Positions 4,443 through 55,410 of a stretch of 64,000 nucleotides of DNA are shown here, piece by piece. The stretch's first letter is position 1. Every line of letters begins with the position of its first letter. The notes below the pieces were generated by a model that had not been told where the DNA came from, did no database searches, and worked only from the letters and a program-made list of their open reading frames with translations. Both the position numbers and the translations under genes were made by a program. Source of the DNA: a phage; NCBI GenBank assembly GCA_033664045.1, contig GCA_033664045.1_3674.1; one strand, 5' to 3'.

Positions 4443-5903
4443 TTACTTAGCGTACTCGATTAATTCCACAGTTTTCCCAAAGCTAGGGATATAATTTTTA
4501 TTATACCCTTCGGTGAGAACCCATAAAGTATCGTACTTTTTCCACTTGTTGTCAACAGCCTTTTGTTCAAAGTTATGCTCAAAGTATAGGTCGGTCAGGA
4601 CGATGACATCTTTTGCATTTGGTATGTTGGCATCCAGATACTCGAACACGCAAGCAGCTGTTGTGCCCCATGTTGAGTGGACCTCATAGTTGATCATCTC
4701 GTCTATGTTGCCGCGAGTATATACTTTAACCTCTCCGACTTCAGTTGACCAACAGAACATTGTAACCTTAAACTCTTTATACAGATTGCACAATCCGGTG
4801 ATTTCATTGAACATTTTCTTTAAAGTTCTTTGAGAGATCGAGCCAGAAACGTCTAAAGCTACCACAATATCTATGGTGTTTTCCGGATTACGACCAGGAA
4901 CAATAACGTGCTGGTTCTTGTTTATAGCCCCAACTTTTCGCATTGTGCTGGTCAAAGACCCAGATCGGCGACCAGGTTTTCTGTAGGTCAGTTCAGCCTT
5001 TCGTTTAGACAACATGCGTTGCTTAATGATGTCTATATAGTTGATTACAGGCTTGCCTCTGTTCTTGACAAACTCACGCACCGCCTCAGGGCAACGGCCT
5101 CCGGACGCTTGCATTGCTGCTTCCAGCATGTCACCAGAGTCTTGCATGGCCTGATCTTTATCAGATTGGCTGATTACAGGTTGTGGCTGATCATACCCCA
5201 TAGCCTTTCCAAGATCATCACTGGTACCACCGTTCCCACTCATGTGATCATCTGTTTGTCGCTTATCTCCTTGAGAGTTCTCACCTTTACCGCTCTTATT
5301 TTTACCGTTATTCTGATCTCTTTGCTTATCAAGAACTGCATAGACGTTCTCAGCAATCCATCCATGAAACCTCATGTCGCAGTAGCAGCTGGCTAAGAAA
5401 CCAAAAGGCTTACCTTTCACGAACGTAGTGCTTTTCCCCTTCGGGAAGAAAACACAAGGAGGCTTGCTAAAGTCAACCACAAGTCCTGTGTTGATAACGT
5501 GATCACAAGCAATATTGAACAGTTCCGGCTCAAAGCTTTTACCACGGACCAGGTGATCACAGATAATATGCCCCACCTCATGCGACAGAAGAAAGGCCAC
5601 CTCTTTCACAGATTTTGGGGAATAGAAAACTTCAGCCATCTCAAACTGCTCGTTAGTTAGAGAGGCCTTAAGAATAGCCTTGCGTTCATCAGCCAACCCC
5701 ATAATGAACTCAGGACTGTAATAGATACGTTTATGGTCGGTTGCCATGGTAGAGCACCATGTGTGGTTCTCTACGAACTGCAACCCTGACAGTAGTGTGC
5801 CATAAAACGGCAGCTTTTCAAGAAGATACATACGTGCAGCCTGCAACATTCTCAGGGCATCATCTTTCTGTGAGGCAATGATTTCTGAACTTCTGCTATC
5901 CAT
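4443..5903 (-). CDS. Metallopeptidase-like (HExxH) plus von Willebrand factor A domain protein
   Basis: HEVGHIICDH (HExxH) in the N-terminal half; DIVVALDVSGSIS MIDAS-like motif in the C-terminal half; start placed at ATG 5903 (track start 5924 is TTG) with GGAG site. Confidence 0.7.
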   Translation of the reverse strand: MDSRSSEIIASQKDDALRMLQAARMYLLEKLPFYGTLLSGLQFVENHTWCSTMATDHKRIYYSPEFIMGLADERKAILKASLTNEQFEMAEVFYSPKSVKEVAFLLSHEVGHIICDHLVRGKSFEPELFNIACDHVINTGLVVDFSKPPCVFFPKGKSTTFVKGKPFGFLASCYCDMRFHGWIAENVYAVLDKQRDQNNGKNKSGKGENSQGDKRQTDDHMSGNGGTSDDLGKAMGYDQPQPVISQSDKDQAMQDSGDMLEAAMQASGGRCPEAVREFVKNRGKPVINYIDIIKQRMLSKRKAELTYRKPGRRSGSLTSTMRKVGAINKNQHVIVPGRNPENTIDIVVALDVSGSISQRTLKKMFNEITGLCNLYKEFKVTMFCWSTEVGEVKVYTRGNIDEMINYEVHSTWGTTAACVFEYLDANIPNAKDVIVLTDLYFEHNFEQKAVDNKWKKYDTLWVLTEGYNKNYIPSFGKTVELIEYAK

Positions 5904-6999: not shown

Positions 7000-7028
7000 T
7001 TGACTTTACTATAAATCCACGATATAGT
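7000..7028 (+). promoter_or_regulatory. Sigma70-like promoter for the rightward block
   Basis: TTGACT (7000-7005), 17-bp spacer, TATAGT (7023-7028). Confidence 0.5.
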
Positions 7029-9259: not shown

Positions 9260-9562
9260 GTGGCAAGGATGCCACTTAAAAGAGTAATGAACATGTTATA
9301 CCAGAAACACGAACTTTGTGCAGAAAAAGAGTTAAATTTTGACAAAGTTATCCACAGATATTGTTATGGAAAAACCGGAAGACAACTAAGAAGATGCACT
9401 CCAGCATTCTTTCACCCCAGCAGGCGGCTAAGTCCTGAAGAGGCGACAGCAGAAAGGGTTGCATACAACTGGGAAGTTGTGTACGATATTGACAGATCCG
9501 ATGTGACATCTGTTTTGGAAAACTTTGAAAACACTTACACACAAGTAGAGGACTTTTACTAA
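9260..9562 (+). CDS. Hypothetical protein
   Basis: Track ORF; exact start uncertain. Confidence 0.4.
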   Translation: MARMPLKRVMNMLYQKHELCAEKELNFDKVIHRYCYGKTGRQLRRCTPAFFHPSRRLSPEEATAERVAYNWEVVYDIDRSDVTSVLENFENTYTQVEDFY

Positions 9563-10746
9563 TGTCAAGAAACGTATTTGAAAGTGGTCAAATCACTGTC
9601 CGTGAGTTGCCAGCTATCATTCAGTTCGCCCAGCGTCATAACCGATCTGTCCTGATTTTAGGACCAATGGGCGTGGGTAAGAGCCAGGTGATGAAGCAGA
9701 TTGCAGATAATATGTTCGGTGAGCGAGATGACAACCTGGTTGACGTGCGACTGTCAGATAAAGATCCTGCTGACTTATCTGGGCTACCTATCCCTGTAGA
9801 AGCGGATGGAACTACACGTACAGTGTTTGCAATTCCAGAATTTTGGCCTGCAGATCCGGACTGGAGCGGAATTATCTTTCTAGATGAGCTTACCCATGCA
9901 GATAATTACCTGCAGAAGGTTGCAATGCAAATTATGCTCGACCACAAGTGCGGCACTTATGCATTCCCTAAGGGCTCTGTTTTTGTAGCTGCAGGTAACC
10001 GTTCTACAGATGGTGCTGTTCTTTCAGCGCTTGAAGCACCTCTGGCTAACCGCTTTATCATTGTAGAGGTTACAAGCAATGCAGAGGTGTTTATTGAGGA
10101 CTATGCATTCCTCAACGGGGTGCACTCCTCTGTAATTGGGTATTTGAAAAGAGTTCCATCAGCTATCGATAATTATGAGGCTATGGCTGAGATTAATTGT
10201 CCATCTTTTGCCACACCGCGATCTTGGGTTGCTGCATCTGATATCTTGCACGATTTTGACAGCGGTATTATTTCTGACGCTATGGCCCGTGTTCTTCTGC
10301 AAGGTGCTATTGGTCACACTGCAGCGGTAGAGATCTGGACTTACCACACCAAAAAACGCAACTTACCGGAAATCGGTCGGATTATGGCAGGAGGTTGCAA
10401 AGAATACGTAGGTCCTAAACAGCCAGACATCTTGTGGATTCTTGGATCTGAAGGTTGTATCGCTATTCGTAATATGATGGAAAATGCAAGTATCTCCGAC
10501 GAAGATCTTGTTAGCTGTGTGGCAAACTTCCTCGATTTCCTTTGGGAAAATTTCAAGGACGAGAACCGAGATTTTGTATTCTCAGTCTTTATGGCGATGA
10601 TGAAACCTAATGCCTTAGGAAATGCCTTGCTTATCGGTAAAGGGCGTGACAAGATTGTTGCTCAGCTGATCAAAGCATACCCAAACCTGATGAAGATTGT
10701 AAAAGAGTTTGGTGAAGAGTTTAGCGCCATTTTGGCTAAAGCTTGA
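9562..10746 (+). CDS. MoxR-like AAA+ ATPase
   Basis: Walker A GPMGVGKS, Walker B IIFLDEL, sensor/Arg-finger-like AAGNRS and LANRF. Confidence 0.8.
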   Translation: MSRNVFESGQITVRELPAIIQFAQRHNRSVLILGPMGVGKSQVMKQIADNMFGERDDNLVDVRLSDKDPADLSGLPIPVEADGTTRTVFAIPEFWPADPDWSGIIFLDELTHADNYLQKVAMQIMLDHKCGTYAFPKGSVFVAAGNRSTDGAVLSALEAPLANRFIIVEVTSNAEVFIEDYAFLNGVHSSVIGYLKRVPSAIDNYEAMAEINCPSFATPRSWVAASDILHDFDSGIISDAMARVLLQGAIGHTAAVEIWTYHTKKRNLPEIGRIMAGGCKEYVGPKQPDILWILGSEGCIAIRNMMENASISDEDLVSCVANFLDFLWENFKDENRDFVFSVFMAMMKPNALGNALLIGKGRDKIVAQLIKAYPNLMKIVKEFGEEFSAILAKA

Positions 10747-10755
10747 GGAGGTTGT

Positions 10756-11136
10756 ATGGCTAAAGTAGGTAAGCGGGGAAACTACTTGGTAGTATTGACC
10801 GAGGAGCCGGAGAAGGAGTACGAATGCAGCTCCACTTGCGTGATCGATATCCGAGAAAAAGATGTAGATGAAATCTGGTTTGAAATATTAGATGCTTGCG
10901 ACAGCAGTGATTATTTCTTCATCTATGTCAACGATAAAGCTGGGTTCTTCCATGACGACGGAGAGTTGCCGTATGAAATCTATGAACTTGTAGAGGCTTG
11001 CCATCGTGGAGATGCGGAGTTGTTTGGCTTACGGCTGAAAAGCGGTAAATTCTTCTATCAAGATGAGTGCATGAATCTTCATAACTTTGTAGAGGGAACT
11101 TGCAACGATGGAGAGATTTTGGCACACTACGATTAA
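10756..11136 (+). CDS. Hypothetical protein
   Basis: GAGGAGG site; terminator follows. Confidence 0.55.
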   Translation: MAKVGKRGNYLVVLTEEPEKEYECSSTCVIDIREKDVDEIWFEILDACDSSDYFFIYVNDKAGFFHDDGELPYEIYELVEACHRGDAELFGLRLKSGKFFYQDECMNLHNFVEGTCNDGEILAHYD

Positions 11137-11148
11137 TTTCTAAGACCA

Positions 11149-11175
11149 CCCCGCTTCGGCGGGGATTTTCTATTT
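11149..11175 (+). terminator. Rho-independent terminator
   Basis: CCCCGC-TTCG-GCGGGG hairpin followed by ATTTTCTATTT. Confidence 0.65.
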
Positions 11176-11184
11176 GGAGTTATT

Positions 11185-11685
11185 GTGAAAATTAAGATCT
11201 TTGCTATTATTTTGAGCGCATTTTTATCGCTGCCTGTTGTTGCAGCACCAAAACAAAAAGTATACCATACTTGCAAGCCATCAGATACTAAGGAAAACAT
11301 TCTAGCATGCAATATCTACAGGGAAGCTAGAGGGGATGGCACGATGGGTATGCTGGCATCTGGGTTTGCCACATTAAACAGGAAATCTCACCCTAAATAC
11401 CCAGACACTATAAGAAAGATTGTCTACCAGCCTAACCAGTTTTCGTGGACAAACCACGGCAAAACTTTTAAGGTGACAGAAAAAGATTCATGGGATCACG
11501 CTAAAAGTCTTGCAAAGATGCTTCTAAAGGTCTACAATAACAACCATGTTGCATACATGGCTATGGACATAACAGGTGGAGCAACACACTACCATACAAC
11601 CAAAGTACGACCGAAATGGGCAAAAAAGATGCAGAGGACAGCTCAATTCGGGAGTCATATCTACTACAAGGAGCGCAATAAATGA
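11185..11685 (+). CDS. Secreted SleB-like cell-wall hydrolase (Hydrolase_2 family)
   Basis: N-terminal signal peptide MKIKIFAIILSAFLSLPVVAA; NIYREARG…LNRKSHPKYPDTIRKIVYQPNQFSW matches conserved SleB/CwlJ motifs; GTG start. Confidence 0.6.
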   Translation: MKIKIFAIILSAFLSLPVVAAPKQKVYHTCKPSDTKENILACNIYREARGDGTMGMLASGFATLNRKSHPKYPDTIRKIVYQPNQFSWTNHGKTFKVTEKDSWDHAKSLAKMLLKVYNNNHVAYMAMDITGGATHYHTTKVRPKWAKKMQRTAQFGSHIYYKERNK

Positions 11686-13664
11686 TTGTAAACAGTAATG
11701 AAACTAAAGCAGTACTAACCGGAAATATGGAGGTCACCAGGGGCTCAATTTCTCTGAACAAAGAGACTTTTGGGCTAATCATTAAAGGGATTTACGAAGA
11801 TAAGGTGCTGGCAAGCTGCCGTGAACCAATCTTCAATGCTGTGGACTCTCATGTTGAGTCTGGACGGAGTGATGTACCGATCATCATTCACTCTCCTACA
11901 GACCTTGAACCATACTTCTTTGTGCAGGACGTTGGATTGGGCATGTCAGAAGAGATGGTCCGCAACACGTTCATGAACCTTGGAGAGTCAACCAAACGCA
12001 ACAGCAACGCCCTGGTAGGTAATAAAGGTGTTGGCTCAAAGGCTCCGTTCAGCATGGTGGACACTTTCGATGTTATCAGTGTGCACAATGGTGTTGAAAG
12101 CACATATCTATTGTTCTTGGATCAGGGTATCCCAAACGTTACCAAGATCCGAGAGCGGAAGACTGAAGAGCACAACGGGGTAAAAGTTCAGTTCCATGTT
12201 AAGAAAGAGCATGTCCTGAAATATCGCACCGCTATTGCATCATGCCTACGCTATGCAAAATTCCCGTTCACCGTCACTGATCCGATGACGAGCAAGATGC
12301 TAGAGGGTGACAAGGTAGAGGCGCAATACTATTACGAAAAAGATGGTTGGAAGATGACCATCTTGAAGGGCTATACCAGCTCTGACGAGAGTCGTGTGGT
12401 AATGGGCCACCAACCTTACCGCTCTAAGTTCCTGGAGACATTGACCGATTACCCTGCAATCTGCGTGGAAATTCCTATTGGGGATTGCAATATTAACCCT
12501 GGGCGTGAATGGACCATAGAGGGCCATGACGACGGTGGATTCCAGGATCGCCTGGAGGCCTTTGTCAAAGAAGGTATACGTCTTCGCGGGGCAGAAGTTG
12601 TTGCAGAACTGGAGACGGCAAAAACCTCCGCAGAAGCACGTGAGATGATGAAGAACAGTGGAGTGTTCGGGCACATCTTCGGTAAGAATTTTATGTGGGA
12701 CCGATGGGAAGAGACAGGACTAGGAAGTTTGGGAGATTGTGAGATCTTCGCTGGAGGCTTAAATAAAGGCCGCATAGGTTACGCTTGTTACGGAAAGGTA
12801 GAATTCTTACGGGGAGTCTATTTAGTATTTAACGACGGAGACGGCAAATATAACCGAAATAAGTGTAACTACTTAAGCGAGATCACCGGACGCAACGTTT
12901 TCTATTGCCGTAACACGGATCTGGTGAAAGAGTTTAAAGAGGCGGCACACCATCCGTTCTTTGCAGATACGGTAAAATTGTTATCAGAGCTACCTCGCCG
13001 ACCTGCGAAGAAAGGTGAAACAAAAACTCATTATGAGCCAGGTTATTGGGTTAAAAAACTTGAGAAGGATGGTTACTTCCGTCGTGAGCGTATTACTAAG
13101 GCAGAGTTCAAGAAGATTAAGCACTGCATTCCTTATGAGGGTGATATCCAACGTGGAAGTTGTTGGCTGGGACAGCTGAGTAACATCTACCAGCAAAATT
13201 ATGATCGTGTGCGTGCGGCACTCCAGATTCCTGAAGGGGAAGATCTGTACCTGGTATCAGAATCCCGTCTGCTTTGGACTGATCCTGATTGCCAGTATGT
13301 TACAGAGAAAAATGTGGAACATTTGTTGAAAGAGGACGCCTGGAAATTCTTACTGACTCGCGCAGCAAATGAAACTTCATATGACAGCCTGTATAGACAA
13401 TTAGGGAAAATTATCCCCATGCAAGATTTTGGAAATTATCGGCCACATTTCCACAAGTGGGAAGGTAACACCGCGTGGAAGCACAGTGAGCTAAATCATC
13501 GTGCCAAAATCTTAATCGCCAACCGAGTCAAGTGCGGGAAGGCCTATATTGCAAGATTGGAAAAGAAATACCCACTTTTGAAGCATGTAGGCTTGAAATA
13601 TTGGGACACTCCTGCTATGATTGAATACCGTGAACTGATCGATACAAAGAATAACATCAAATAA
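11682..13664 (+). CDS. GHKL/Hsp90-like ATPase domain protein, possibly rIIA-like
   Basis: N-box REPIFNAVDS, G1 box DVGLGMS, G2 box GNKGVGSKAPF; 660 aa; followed by a 401-aa partner as in rIIA/rIIB. Confidence 0.55.
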   Translation: MIVNSNETKAVLTGNMEVTRGSISLNKETFGLIIKGIYEDKVLASCREPIFNAVDSHVESGRSDVPIIIHSPTDLEPYFFVQDVGLGMSEEMVRNTFMNLGESTKRNSNALVGNKGVGSKAPFSMVDTFDVISVHNGVESTYLLFLDQGIPNVTKIRERKTEEHNGVKVQFHVKKEHVLKYRTAIASCLRYAKFPFTVTDPMTSKMLEGDKVEAQYYYEKDGWKMTILKGYTSSDESRVVMGHQPYRSKFLETLTDYPAICVEIPIGDCNINPGREWTIEGHDDGGFQDRLEAFVKEGIRLRGAEVVAELETAKTSAEAREMMKNSGVFGHIFGKNFMWDRWEETGLGSLGDCEIFAGGLNKGRIGYACYGKVEFLRGVYLVFNDGDGKYNRNKCNYLSEITGRNVFYCRNTDLVKEFKEAAHHPFFADTVKLLSELPRRPAKKGETKTHYEPGYWVKKLEKDGYFRRERITKAEFKKIKHCIPYEGDIQRGSCWLGQLSNIYQQNYDRVRAALQIPEGEDLYLVSESRLLWTDPDCQYVTEKNVEHLLKEDAWKFLLTRAANETSYDSLYRQLGKIIPMQDFGNYRPHFHKWEGNTAWKHSELNHRAKILIANRVKCGKAYIARLEKKYPLLKHVGLKYWDTPAMIEYRELIDTKNNIK

Positions 13665-13674
13665 GGAGACCAAG

Positions 13675-14880
13675 ATGATTTTCATCTACGAACATTTCAA
13701 AACCCGTAAAGAAGCACGAGACCGCCGTGCAGAACTGGAGAAAAAGGGTTTCACATGTGCCATTGAGAAAGGCGACACAACCTGGACACTGGCAGTGGGT
13801 GCCCCAGAGTTGTTCGATCCTGACCGTGACAGCGTCTGCTACACCCGTGAGGATTTTGAAACCCGCGAAGAGGCCCGTTTATTTCGATATGGTCTGGAAG
13901 ATAACGGCAAGTACGCTATGATCTTAGATTTAGGCGAAGGTTCCGTTAAACGTTGGGGCGTGGTATATCCCCTGTGTGTTGTTCACGGTGTGGGGTTCAC
14001 TGGGGTGGCAATCAAGTCAGAAGAACCTTTAGTAGAAGTCAAAGATCCGGTGCTGGAGGTGGTGAGCAGTGTGTCTCAGCAACAGACTCGAAGCATCGAG
14101 CCTTTGGTAGTTATTTGTGGGGAACTCCTCCAGATCACCTGCAACGAAGGTATTTTTGAAATTCGCCGCAGTGAAAGTGAGGAAGTTTACCAGAAAGTCT
14201 TCGACCATATCTCTGTTCAGGAATATGATGAGGCAATTGGTGAAATCCTTGTCTGGCTGGAACGCAAGAATGAGTTCACCACACTTGCAGACAACCTGAT
14301 CATGAAAGATGGTAAGCTCTACTACTACGGTGTAGAGATGCGATCCACCATTGCAAAGAAAATTGAGAAAGACTATGCAGACGGAACACTGGATGACCGC
14401 TATGTGAAATTCCTCGTTCGCCTGCTACGCAATCCTTCTGCAAAATCTGTAAACATGCTCTACGATTTTATGCAGGCCAACGATATCCAGATTGCAGAAG
14501 ATGGTCGAATCGTTTGCTACAAAGGTGTTCAGTTTAACGGCAGCAAGTGGGTGGATTGGCACAGTGGTAAAGTTCCACAATACCAGGGTGCTTTTGTATC
14601 CATGCCTCGTAACTTTGTAGAGGATGATCCGGAAGCTGCGTGCTCCTATGGCTTACACTGCGCCAGCAAAGAGTATGCAAAAAGCTACGGCACTGTAATG
14701 ACTGTTATGGTTGACCCTGCAGATGTGGTTAGTGTGCCATACCAACACAATAGCGCCAAGTGCCGTGCATGCCGCTATGAGATTGTGGTAGCTCCGGAAG
14801 CACGCAAGGACGGAGACCCGATTGAATACGTGGTTGACAGAGATGGTAACACTATCGACATTCTTTACGAGGAGGTGTAA
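13675..14880 (+). CDS. Hypothetical protein with N-terminal tandem repeat, possibly rIIB-like
   Basis: Track ORF; two repeats FKTRKEARDRRAELEKKGF / FETREEARLFRYGLEDNGK; translationally coupled to both neighbours. Confidence 0.5.
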   Translation: MIFIYEHFKTRKEARDRRAELEKKGFTCAIEKGDTTWTLAVGAPELFDPDRDSVCYTREDFETREEARLFRYGLEDNGKYAMILDLGEGSVKRWGVVYPLCVVHGVGFTGVAIKSEEPLVEVKDPVLEVVSSVSQQQTRSIEPLVVICGELLQITCNEGIFEIRRSESEEVYQKVFDHISVQEYDEAIGEILVWLERKNEFTTLADNLIMKDGKLYYYGVEMRSTIAKKIEKDYADGTLDDRYVKFLVRLLRNPSAKSVNMLYDFMQANDIQIAEDGRIVCYKGVQFNGSKWVDWHSGKVPQYQGAFVSMPRNFVEDDPEAACSYGLHCASKEYAKSYGTVMTVMVDPADVVSVPYQHNSAKCRACRYEIVVAPEARKDGDPIEYVVDRDGNTIDILYEEV

Positions 14881-16250
14881 TGGAAAAAGGGCAGTATGAT
14901 GTAGGCACAGATGCTGCCCTCGTTGCAATCATGAGCGGTGAGAATGTCTTCGTTTCAGGACCCGCAGGTTGTGGGAAGACGTACCTCATCAACATGATCC
15001 AGTCAATGTATGGAGACTCTTGCATAACGGTTGCCCCGACAGGGGTAGCCGCTTTAAACGTTAATGGAGCAACAGCACACCGAACCTTCGATCTTGCAGC
15101 AGGTGTGAGCATGGAGTCAGACTGGACCGCAATAAGGGCAAAAACAGCAAAGCCTTTGAAAAGCAAGGCATTTACCATCCTAATTATCGATGAAATCTCT
15201 ATGATCCGTGCTGATAAGTTTATAGAGATGGATAGGAAACTTCGCTTCCTTCGAAAAAATGACAAACCTTTCGGAGGCATACAGGTCATATTGTTTGGCG
15301 ACTTTTACCAGGCACCTCCTGTTGTCTCTTCTATGGAGAAGGAAGCCTACTTCAACTTCTACCATACGGACCTGTGTTGCTATACCGAATCTTGGAAAGA
15401 GCTTGACCTCCACAACATAGCCCTAGTAGATCAGTTCCGACAGGAGTCTATTCGATTTGCCACAATGCTCAACTGTGTTCGTGAGGGTCGTCGCATAAAA
15501 GAGGTTGTAGCAGAGCTTAATGCTCGCTGTTACAAAGGCGGTGTACCAACAGACGCTCTCACAATTTGCGCCACCAACAAACAAGCAGAGGAAGTGAACA
15601 GAAGGTTCTATGATGCCATCAACGCCCCAGAGAAGGTATACACTGGTGAAATGAAGGGTAAGTTTCCCTCCACCCTACCAGTTGAGCAGGAGATGAAGTT
15701 GAAAATTGGCATGAAAGTTATGATAACCGCCAACGATGTTGACCCAACGCACAAAGTACCTTATTATGTTAACGGAACACGTGCCACAATTGTTAAATTT
15801 AAGAACAAGGCAGTGGTGGTAGAGCTTGAAGATGGAACACAGGTTGACATAGAGCAGATGTTGTGGGAGAATAACGAATATAAGCCATCTCAGAGATACA
15901 ACATTGCAGAAAGGAAGATGGAGAAGTTTATAGAGAGGGTAGTGATCGGGTCATATAAGCAACTCCCTCTGAAATCTGGGTACGCCGTAACATCTCATAA
16001 AAGTCAAGGACTTACACTAGATTGTTACAACCTAGACCTTGGAAAGAACGGAGCTTTCTCTCCTGGGATGACGTATGTCGCTTTGAGTAGAGTTAAGACA
16101 ATACAAGGAATAAACTTGTTGCGTCCACTAAGAGAGGTTGACATTATTGTTGACCCGCGAGTCGTAGAGTTTTACAATACAACATTCCCTGACTTAGACA
16201 AAATTGTCAGGAAAGATTTTGAAACCAGAGCCGAAGAGGGGGACGTATGA
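14880..16250 (+). CDS. Pif1/RecD/Dda-like DNA helicase
   Basis: Walker A GPAGCGKT, Walker B LIIDEISM, GDFYQAPPV, VTSHKSQGLT. Confidence 0.85.
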   Translation: MEKGQYDVGTDAALVAIMSGENVFVSGPAGCGKTYLINMIQSMYGDSCITVAPTGVAALNVNGATAHRTFDLAAGVSMESDWTAIRAKTAKPLKSKAFTILIIDEISMIRADKFIEMDRKLRFLRKNDKPFGGIQVILFGDFYQAPPVVSSMEKEAYFNFYHTDLCCYTESWKELDLHNIALVDQFRQESIRFATMLNCVREGRRIKEVVAELNARCYKGGVPTDALTICATNKQAEEVNRRFYDAINAPEKVYTGEMKGKFPSTLPVEQEMKLKIGMKVMITANDVDPTHKVPYYVNGTRATIVKFKNKAVVVELEDGTQVDIEQMLWENNEYKPSQRYNIAERKMEKFIERVVIGSYKQLPLKSGYAVTSHKSQGLTLDCYNLDLGKNGAFSPGMTYVALSRVKTIQGINLLRPLREVDIIVDPRVVEFYNTTFPDLDKIVRKDFETRAEEGDV

Positions 16251-40907: not shown

Positions 40908-41192
40908 ATGAAAAAGATGATCGCAGTGGTTGCCCTGGTTATTGGACTTAATGCGCCTGTAATGGCTAAAGAGCTGGCAAAAGAGGTAGATCTAACTGAT
41001 ATCCATGCCGTCAATCAAATCGGTGTTACTTATCGGTTATGCCTTGCCGCAAAAACTTTCCAGGATGGCACAACAGAGTACTACGGATTCGAAGGCATCC
41101 GGTGCGGTGAGCTTGCTCGCGACCTTAAAGAAGATCCAGACCTGGAGGATCTGCCGATAACCGTAAACGGGAAAACTTACGTGAACCGTTAA
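40908..41192 (+). CDS. Secreted small protein (signal peptide)
   Basis: MKKMIAVVALVIGLNAPVMA signal-like N-terminus; AAAGAGGA site. Confidence 0.5.
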   Translation: MKKMIAVVALVIGLNAPVMAKELAKEVDLTDIHAVNQIGVTYRLCLAAKTFQDGTTEYYGFEGIRCGELARDLKEDPDLEDLPITVNGKTYVNR

Positions 41193-55173: not shown

Positions 55174-55410
55174 TCAGGCACTGTTACCATCCTTATCTGC
55201 CTCCTTCATTTTCCTGACGGTTTTACAGTGATCTACCAAGCACATAACAACAATGAAGAGAACGACAGGCCAAAAAGGTGCGGCAGTGATTATAGTTATA
55301 AAGTCGTCAAACTTAATTTTTCTACAAGATATGATGCAAAGAGTTGCTAAAACAACCATTGTCAGAAAGGTCAATGCGCAATACCAAACCAACACAGTAT
55401 CTATGGCCAT
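55174..55410 (-). CDS. Membrane protein (two hydrophobic helices)
   Basis: VLVWYCALTFLTMVVLATLCII and AAPFWPVVLFIVVMCLV. Confidence 0.5.
   Translation of the reverse strand: MAIDTVLVWYCALTFLTMVVLATLCIISCRKIKFDDFITIITAAPFWPVVLFIVVMCLVDHCKTVRKMKEADKDGNSA

Follow-up and report, generated by a model that had tools for sequence, protein, structure and literature searches.

Sec-dependent, holin-independent delivery of a muralytic enzyme to the cell wall is known from Lys44 of the Oenococcus phage fOg44, from Lyz of phage P1, and from R of phage 21. All three are the endolysins of their phages, expressed late and paired with a holin or a pinholin. The fold that concerns us here is that of Bacillus SleB, a germination-specific lytic transglycosylase (4F55, 4FET). 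SleB proper acts only on murein with muramic-delta-lactam; this is absent from that of E. coli, and the E. coli host makes no spores. Several papers have already drawn attention to exported phage proteins of the Hydrolase_2 family that are encoded outside the lysis genes. Pectobacterium phage CB7 gp83 (Certrevirus) and its homologues in PVP-SE1, BME3 and 4MG are SleB-like, carry a signal peptide, and come in addition to another endolysin. PAK_P3 gp151 and the T5-like protein (bas33_0077 of Bas33, "putative cell wall hydrolase") are single-domain Hydrolase_2 proteins with an N-terminal export or anchor signal, and their genes lie among those of DNA metabolism, with a classical endolysin/holin/spanin set elsewhere in the genome. 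Our literature searches brought up no Hydrolase_2 protein from a phage of Gram-negative bacteria that had been assayed, knocked out or studied for its expression. Nothing on the gene studied here is found in a Vequintavirus "proteomics" paper or in the daunorubicin paper, and the CRISPRi-ART supplements hold no entry for it.

The locus described here lies in a 64,000-nucleotide stretch of phage DNA (contig GCA_033664045.1_3674.1), which we call the window. The hydrolase ORF occupies positions 11185-11685 of the plus strand, exactly as placed by an earlier reading of the letters alone (the sequence-only reading), and encodes 166 amino acids from a GTG start. The protein is 99.4% identical in amino acids to gp002 of Escherichia phage rV5, annotated as "cell wall hydrolase" (YP_002003504.1). 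The two have the same length, the same position upstream of rIIA and the same PF07486 annotation, with no substantial difference between them: they are one gene, found in two isolates. Annotated orthologues of gp002, such as bas51_0065 of Bas51 and "SleB" of slur16, occur in over 100 Vequintavirus genomes. Over the 5.4 kb around the gene, nucleotide identity is 96% to more than 80 complete Vequintavirus genomes (rV5-like E. coli myoviruses), including Bas51 WalterGehring, PDX and slur16. Relative to the rV5 reference record the window is in reverse orientation, running from about 13.7 kb of rV5 back to position 1 and then from 137.9 to about 88 kb. The gene is thus real, ordinary, and already annotated in rV5-like phages. 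The literature and GenBank annotations likewise already contain its Pfam family and signal peptide, and also the layout of two endolysins with one in the replication module. The features of the locus are as follows.

7000-7028 (+): sigma-70-like promoter, TTGACT-17-TATAGT, in the divergent intergenic region
9562-10746 (+): MoxR-like AAA+ ATPase (PHROG 1297, E=1.4e-110; annotation of a relative)
10756-11136 (+): acidic 126-aa protein (pI 4.3), homologue of rV5 gp003 (PHROG 12370, E=1.6e-88)
11149-11175 (+): terminator-like hairpin CCCCGC-TTCG-GCGGGG (11149-11164) and interrupted T-run (11165-11175), abutting the ribosome-binding site of the hydrolase
11176-11187 (+): ribosome-binding site GGAG (11176-11179), 5-nt spacer and GTG start (11185-11187), read from the sequence
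11185-11244 (+): signal peptide of the hydrolase, residues 1-20 (MKIKIFAIILSAFLSLPVVA), with a signal peptidase I cut predicted after A20 from sequence features
11245-11685 (+): mature SleB-fold (Hydrolase_2) catalytic domain, residues 21-166, and stop codon
11682-11685 (+): ATGA overlap of the hydrolase stop TGA (11683-11685) with the rIIA start ATG (11682-11684)
11682-13664 (+): rIIA, 660 aa, with an N-terminal GHKL-type ATPase domain (PHROG 612, E=7.5e-124; HATPase_c_3, E=1.7e-8)
13675-14880 (+): rIIB, 401 aa (PHROG 609, E=1.8e-61)
14880-16250 (+): Dda/RecD-like helicase, whose start overlaps the rIIB stop (TAATG) (PHROG 325, E=1.9e-111)

The sequence-only reading had recognized SleB/CwlJ hydrolase motifs, and profile, fold and active site bear this out. 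The match to Pfam Hydrolase_2 (PF07486) reaches 70.4 bits (E=2.1e-19) against a curated gathering cut-off of 27 bits, and covers residues 51-161 and profile positions 2-100 of 100. A sequence search also finds the SleB catalytic-domain structures 4F55 and 4FET, at E~1e-6. The AlphaFold model, built on an alignment of 33 sequences, has a mean pLDDT of 95.4, and its only significant PDB matches in Foldseek are these same two SleB domains (probability 1.00, TM 0.75-0.79 normalized to the target, 24% identity). Relatives are numerous: while the word-indexed homology search gave 10 matches, the exhaustive representative search gave 11,334 at E<=0.001. In an alignment of 161 sequences, made up of the query and 160 retrieved relatives, residues Y45, E47, R49, N65, R66, Q85-F86-S87, W145 and H158 are invariant or nearly so, with E47 kept in all 159 sequences covering that position. 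Glu47 (codon GAA, 11323-11325) stands in the motif Y-R-E-A-R-G-D and aligns with the Glu of Y-G-E-S-R-G-E in 4F55. We take this Glu of the SleB motif to be the catalytic one, and Glu47 thereby to be the catalytic residue of the phage protein. A glutamate of SleB is essential (PMC12331253), which together with the alignment and this assumption points to Glu47 as the catalytic glutamate. Since the fold is conserved and the residues of the active-site motifs are intact, the hydrolase looks like an active enzyme.

The protein shares its catalytic fold with Bacillus SleB, but it is not SleB proper. Against the NCBIfam spore_SleB equivalog (TIGR02869) it scores 48.3 bits, far below the cut-off of 236.5, and only over positions 83-201, the catalytic half; it is therefore not an orthologue of the spore enzyme. 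Unlike Bacillus SleB it has no N-terminal PG_binding_1 domain, as judged by a Pfam search, and its Sec signal peptide would direct it to the Gram-negative periplasm. The spore cortex-lytic identity was thus rejected. Given the need of SleB proper for muramic-delta-lactam, both the murein substrate in E. coli and the bond that is cut are presumed; by likeness to SleB, the phage enzyme would most likely be a lytic transglycosylase. The one indirect sign of muralytic activity is the reported toxicity of the CB7 homologue in E. coli. The reading that we favor, with a probability of about 0.6, is that of a weakly expressed accessory enzyme: a holin-independent, periplasmic lytic transglycosylase that would remodel murein or weaken the wall.

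Whether such an enzyme is the endolysin of the phage depends on what else the lineage encodes. In rV5, a Phage_lysozyme-type lysin, gp085 (ORF 89), adjoins a small hydrophobic protein and is encoded between the DNA ligase and exonuclease genes, the genes of the Rz/Rz1-type spanins gp067/068 are next to that of the large terminase, and yet another site encodes a putative holin (ORF 129). The lysis genes of rV5-like phages are scattered, with no lysis cassette, and the placement of the hydrolase is therefore normal for this group; the sequence-only reading was right to put the gene outside a lysis cassette, but not to call this unusual. The lysin is functional in a close relative: purified LysECP26, which shares 98% identity with the rV5 lysin, lysed each of the 29 Gram-negative strains tested. 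A lysin at least 95% identical to gp085 is found in 81 phage records, including genomes that carry the hydrolase. Within the window the canonical lysin, its transmembrane neighbor and the spanins are all absent, as the extent of the window predicts, and the only match to a lysis gene is a homologue of the putative holin ORF 129 at 55180-55410 (56% identical). From relatives that are ~96% identical we infer that this phage has the canonical endolysin too. Because close relatives carry a gp085-type lysin, the hydrolase would be a second muralytic enzyme, and not the only one of the phage.

The hydrolase could nonetheless be a true secretory endolysin, guided to the periplasm by its signal peptide and kept in check there until a holin or pinholin depolarizes the membrane and so sets it free. 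In that case it would be either redundant with the lysozyme-type gp085 or more important than it. Several observations point this way. The protein matches PHROG 938, which is classed as "endolysin" (E=1.7e-27). The CB7 homologue is reported to be toxic when expressed in E. coli ("data not shown" in the CB7 paper), and the same paper says that the CR3 homologue has been implicated in lysis. An exported Hydrolase_2 protein, encoded away from the lysis genes, is found in all Vequintavirinae genera, while the other endolysin is swapped between a Phage_lysozyme type (rV5), the modular gp146 (PVP-SE1) and an M15 peptidase (CB7). Finally, in 4MG, CB7 and KB57 (where it is unannotated) the gene is followed by a small ORF for a two-transmembrane, holin-like protein with a basic C-terminus, which hints at a genuine lysis role in Seunavirus, Mydovirus and Certrevirus. 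This partner is however missing in Vequintavirus. In the genera of CB7, PVP-SE1, BME3 and 4MG the holin-like ORF comes right after the hydrolase, whereas here the hydrolase stop overlaps rIIA, and the window holds no homologue of the holin-like ORF. The gene is moreover predicted to be co-transcribed with rII and replication genes, and it is the lysozyme-type endolysin of a close relative that has been purified and found lytic. Other lineages also keep complete lysis systems besides the exported enzyme. In T5-like phages the M15 endolysin adjoins a holin and the SleB-domain protein is encoded far off, and in PAK_P3 a full endolysin-spanin cassette (gp28-31) is placed at the end of the structural module, while gp151 is found between the DNA ligase and DprA/helicase genes. 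PAK_P3 gp151 is not a late gene: its transcript is plentiful as early as 3.5 min, and the level at 13 min is not significantly different (log2FC 0.62, padj 0.34). Cell-wall precursors accumulate during PAK_P3 infection, and the authors tied gp151 to this accumulation. With a separate endolysin, no adjacent holin, and a place in a predicted early/middle unit, the hydrolase differs from the known secretory and signal-arrest-release (SAR) endolysins, and we consider a secretory endolysin unlikely here.

An accessory enzyme made in small amounts is what the transcription unit suggests. Rightward transcription through the hydrolase probably starts at the promoter at 7000-7028. Kropinski et al. had recognized this region as the origin of a transcription unit 10-1-238-164, and placed promoters for both directions between genes 10 and 11 of rV5. 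The MoxR-like ATPase is encoded on the same strand and in the same predicted unit, followed by the gp003 homologue, whose gene ends 12 nt 5' of the hairpin. The hairpin (11149-11164) is followed by ATTTTCTATTT. No convincing sigma-70 promoter was seen in the 150 nt upstream of the hydrolase, and the 21-nt gap between hairpin and gene leaves no room for one; the gene must therefore be reached by read-through from upstream, and ultimately from the promoter at 7000-7028. At the other end, the ATGA overlap implies co-transcription with rIIA, and the two genes are probably also coupled in translation. Klebsiella phage KB57 and Escherichia phage 4MG also have a hairpin and T-run at this position, with stems that differ in sequence, and in phage alia a hairpin and then a sigma-70-like promoter precede the homologue. 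The start codon is not ATG in four genera: it is GTG here, and TTG in KB57, 4MG and alia. The upstream hairpin and the non-ATG start may thus be two conserved brakes on a potentially harmful enzyme. The gp003 homologue, which is similar to T5.083 (rV5 Table S3), was also considered as an inhibitor or chaperone forming a conserved pair with the hydrolase. Its tblastn matches are confined to rV5-like loci, and the hydrolase genes of T5-like phages, KB57, 4MG and alia do not have it as a neighbor, so that the pairing was rejected.

Downstream, the picture of a gene between a terminator and a GHKL ATPase gene, among replication genes, needs to be refined. The terminator-like hairpin is indeed upstream, but the "GHKL ATPase" is rIIA. 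Past rIIB and the helicase, methyltransferases, a primase/helicase and DNA polymerase are found farther downstream. In the Vequintavirus EdH4, knock-down of rIIA or rIIB leads to a ~1000-fold loss of plating efficiency, and only on cells expressing RexAB. As these genes act against RexAB, the immediate neighbors of the hydrolase are counter-defense and not replication genes, and the neighborhood is best described as a predicted early/middle unit of host interaction and replication rather than a purely replicative one.

This linkage raises a second alternative, in which the hydrolase would be a periplasmic factor working with rIIA/rIIB in superinfection exclusion, in protection against lysis from without, or in countering an abortive infection system that acts on the envelope, and would not serve lysis or wall turnover. 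Superinfection exclusion had been raised by the sequence-only reading, and our results speak neither for nor against it. The start/stop overlap with rIIA is in its favor, as is the order hydrolase-rIIA-rIIB-helicase, which is kept in Vequintavirus, Mydovirus and Seunavirus. So is the finding that EdH4 needs its rIIA/rIIB only on RexAB-expressing hosts, and the product is, as judged from its sequence, exported and probably made early. But the linkage of hydrolase and rIIA is confined to these three genera of Vequintavirinae. Unlike the present phage, in which the two genes overlap, CB7 has the hydrolase and no rIIA/rIIB at all. The T5-like phages, alia, PAK_P1, PAK_P3 and the Vibrio and Stenotrophomonas phages have no rII genes beside theirs; the PAK_P3 and T5-like homologues are ~35-40% identical to the protein described here. 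Nor is any mechanism known by which a murein glycosidase could prevent infection. We therefore regard a role in rII-linked conflict as quite improbable.

Export itself is suggested both by the N-terminus and by its relatives. The protein begins with MKIK, continues with IFAIILSAFLSLPVV and reaches the predicted cleavage site at A|AP. It thus has a positive n-region (KxK), a 15-residue hydrophobic core, a proline at -4 and a V-x-A motif at -3/-1, and among 86 long ORFs in the window it ranks fourth for N-terminal hydrophobicity. The classic signal peptide proposed by the sequence-only reading is thus supported by these features and by the signals of the relatives, with cleavage at A20|A21 as the predicted event. 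Comparing the families shows that the signal seems to be conserved though its sequence drifts, export being apparently a family trait: the rV5-like signal reads MKIK...VVA|A and the T5-like one MKAALLLVAALTFSFNSHA|T, while those of KB57 and 4MG end in ...TPVLA|K and that of alia (phi92-like) in ...VVAQA|E. The signals at the N-termini of the T5-like, KB57, 4MG and alia proteins and of many metagenomic homologues are unrelated in sequence and have textbook A-x-A sites. Signals are present in the Vibrio and Stenotrophomonas phage homologues as well, the CB7 paper independently predicted the one of its own homologue, and a crude rule for signal peptides is satisfied by no fewer than 113 of the 150 cluster representatives with the best scores. 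The mature protein (residues 21-166) would have a mass of ~16.9 kDa and a pI of ~10. Its only cysteines are Cys30 and Cys42, and Cys30 is always accompanied by Cys42 (29/29 aligned sequences), a co-occurrence that fits a periplasmic disulfide.

A hydrophobic N-terminal helix, predicted here, could also be read as the uncleaved, weakly hydrophobic anchor of a SAR endolysin, which keeps the enzyme inactive until the membrane is depolarized. The PAK_P1 and PAK_P3 homologues do have anchor-like or SAR-like N-termini, rich in Ala/Ser/Gly/Thr or without a small-x-small cleavage motif, and that of PAK_P3 gp151, whose gene is transcribed from early times, is longer than the one seen here. Compared with the known SAR domains of P1 Lyz and phage 21 R, however, the core IFAIILSAFLSLPVV has no Gly and only 4 Ala/Ser among its 15 residues, and with a mean Kyte-Doolittle hydropathy of 2.62 we judge it, heuristically, to be strongly hydrophobic. 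The helix-breaking Pro at -4 and the canonical V-x-A|A motif also speak for cleavage, as do the textbook A-x-A sites of the other versions, which makes a SAR endolysin very improbable.

The last alternative, a virion-associated lysin that pierces the wall at entry (as the sequence-only reading had suggested for this member of a peptidoglycan-hydrolase family) or else a catalytically dead murein-binding protein, is hardly credible: a Sec signal sends the stand-alone 166-aa pre-protein out of the cytoplasm where virions are assembled, making a role in entry very unlikely, virion-associated hydrolases are usually domains of a tail or internal protein, the rV5 proteomics paper does not include gp2 when it names virion proteins in its text, "hydrolase" in its supplementary files matches only the gene table, the PA5oct homologue was not detected in virions, and all catalytic and structural motif residues are intact.

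For the accessory periplasmic lytic transglycosylase that we favor, a course of events can be proposed. The 20-residue Sec signal peptide would carry the pre-protein across the inner membrane, and its removal at the predicted A20|A21 site would leave a basic, soluble periplasmic enzyme of ~17 kDa with the SleB/CwlJ fold, in which Glu47 would cut murein glycan strands as a lytic transglycosylase, by analogy with SleB. The gene would be transcribed by read-through of the hairpin terminator within a long rightward early/middle unit, in the order MoxR ATPase, gp003, hydrolase, rIIA, rIIB, helicase, primase and polymerase, and translated from a weak GTG start with the ATGA overlap with rIIA. Read-through, weak start and overlap would together mean that the hydrolase is made in small amounts, well before lysis, and at the same time as rIIA/rIIB; the early timing is suggested by gene order and by the ~35% identical homologue of a Pseudomonas phage. 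Since the enzyme would reach the wall without a holin, it would not be the holin-gated endolysin, and holin-gated lysis would be left to the cytoplasmic lysozyme-type homologue of gp085 and to the spanins. An early, free periplasmic lytic transglycosylase could harm the cell, and only a presumed low dosage explains how it is tolerated.

Large virulent phages that infect Gram-negative hosts have exported Hydrolase_2 proteins outside their lysis genes in at least five lineages that are not related to one another: Vequintavirinae, Stephanstirmvirinae, T5-like Demerecviridae, Pakpunavirus/Nankokuvirus, and Vibrio and Stenotrophomonas myoviruses. The phages in which such a protein was seen as a second muralytic gene include Phapecoctavirus, Justusliebigvirus and PVP-SE1/BME3. 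Such Sec-exported enzymes might then form a distinct class, not of spare endolysins but of early, holin-independent agents of "murein conditioning", remodeling or recycling the wall of the infected host, or else serve in an rII-linked conflict at the envelope; this generalization is tentative, and we hold it to be doubtful at present. An exported murein hydrolase that would need no holin is carried by many of the large lytic phages used in therapy and biocontrol. If the hydrolase does condition the wall before lysis, then lysis timing, burst size and muropeptide release would all be affected, and a naturally periplasm-targeted enzyme may be of use in the design of enzybiotics.

Immediately 3′ of the hydrolase gene in Klebsiella phage KB57 (KT934943.1, ~4535-4690 of its locus, L007) lies a small unannotated ORF, MKKFLVIFVCITPLCVILSLSQPMYWEQICGAYAIGMATAAFRLNINNCKK. 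It is homologous to 4MG_271, and its product is a holin-like, two-transmembrane protein; the gene order in KB57 is hydrolase, holin-like ORF, rIIA. No counterpart of this two-transmembrane ORF is present in the window. The following genes bear on the holin of rV5-like phages or, in the last case, encode a further product of the window with a signal peptide:

55180-55410, minus strand: a PHROG 10061 protein homologous to ORF129 of rV5, which has two transmembrane segments and is a putative holin according to Kropinski et al.
22109-22315 of L003 (rV5), outside the window: gp086, 68 aa, adjoining and following the lysozyme-type endolysin; N-terminus MKDFLLAILFMAACLACGVVFAG
40908-41192, plus strand: small protein of 94 aa with a textbook signal peptide, MKKMIAVVALVIGLNAPVMA, then KE after the predicted cut (PHROG 9845, function unknown)

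The ORF129 homologue shares only 56% identity with the rV5 protein, against ~96% nucleotide identity in the 5.4 kb around the hydrolase. The N-terminus of gp086 resembles a lipoprotein or secretory signal more than it does a holin.

Among the matches to the hydrolase region are 16-23 GenBank records (MG0656xx) titled “Campylobacter phage”, with Campylobacter jejuni given as host. Across this region they share ~96% identity with rV5-like phages of E. coli, and their host label looks doubtful.

The hydrolase is preceded, on the plus strand at 10756-11136, by a homologue of rV5 gp003 (126 aa, acidic with a pI of 4.3, Cys-rich; PHROG 12370). A likeness of rV5 gp003 to T5.083 has been reported, and linkage of a gp003 homologue to the hydrolase was not found outside rV5-like phages. 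On the other side, residues 8-42 of rIIB (13675-14880, plus strand) weakly match SPOR, a peptidoglycan-binding domain, with a score of 19.3 bits (E=0.0014) that falls below the cut-off of 21. This sub-threshold match falls at the rIIB N-terminus, and a neighbouring gene encodes a murein hydrolase; the match is probably due to chance.

Terminator-like hairpins precede the hydrolase ribosome-binding site at the following positions:

11149-11175 of the window, directly 5′ of the site
~3960-3995 in L007 and in L009, the locus of an other-genus relative
~3915-3990 in L006, a further such locus

The position of the hairpin is conserved across genera while its stem sequences differ, and a non-ATG hydrolase start (GTG or TTG) is found in four genera.
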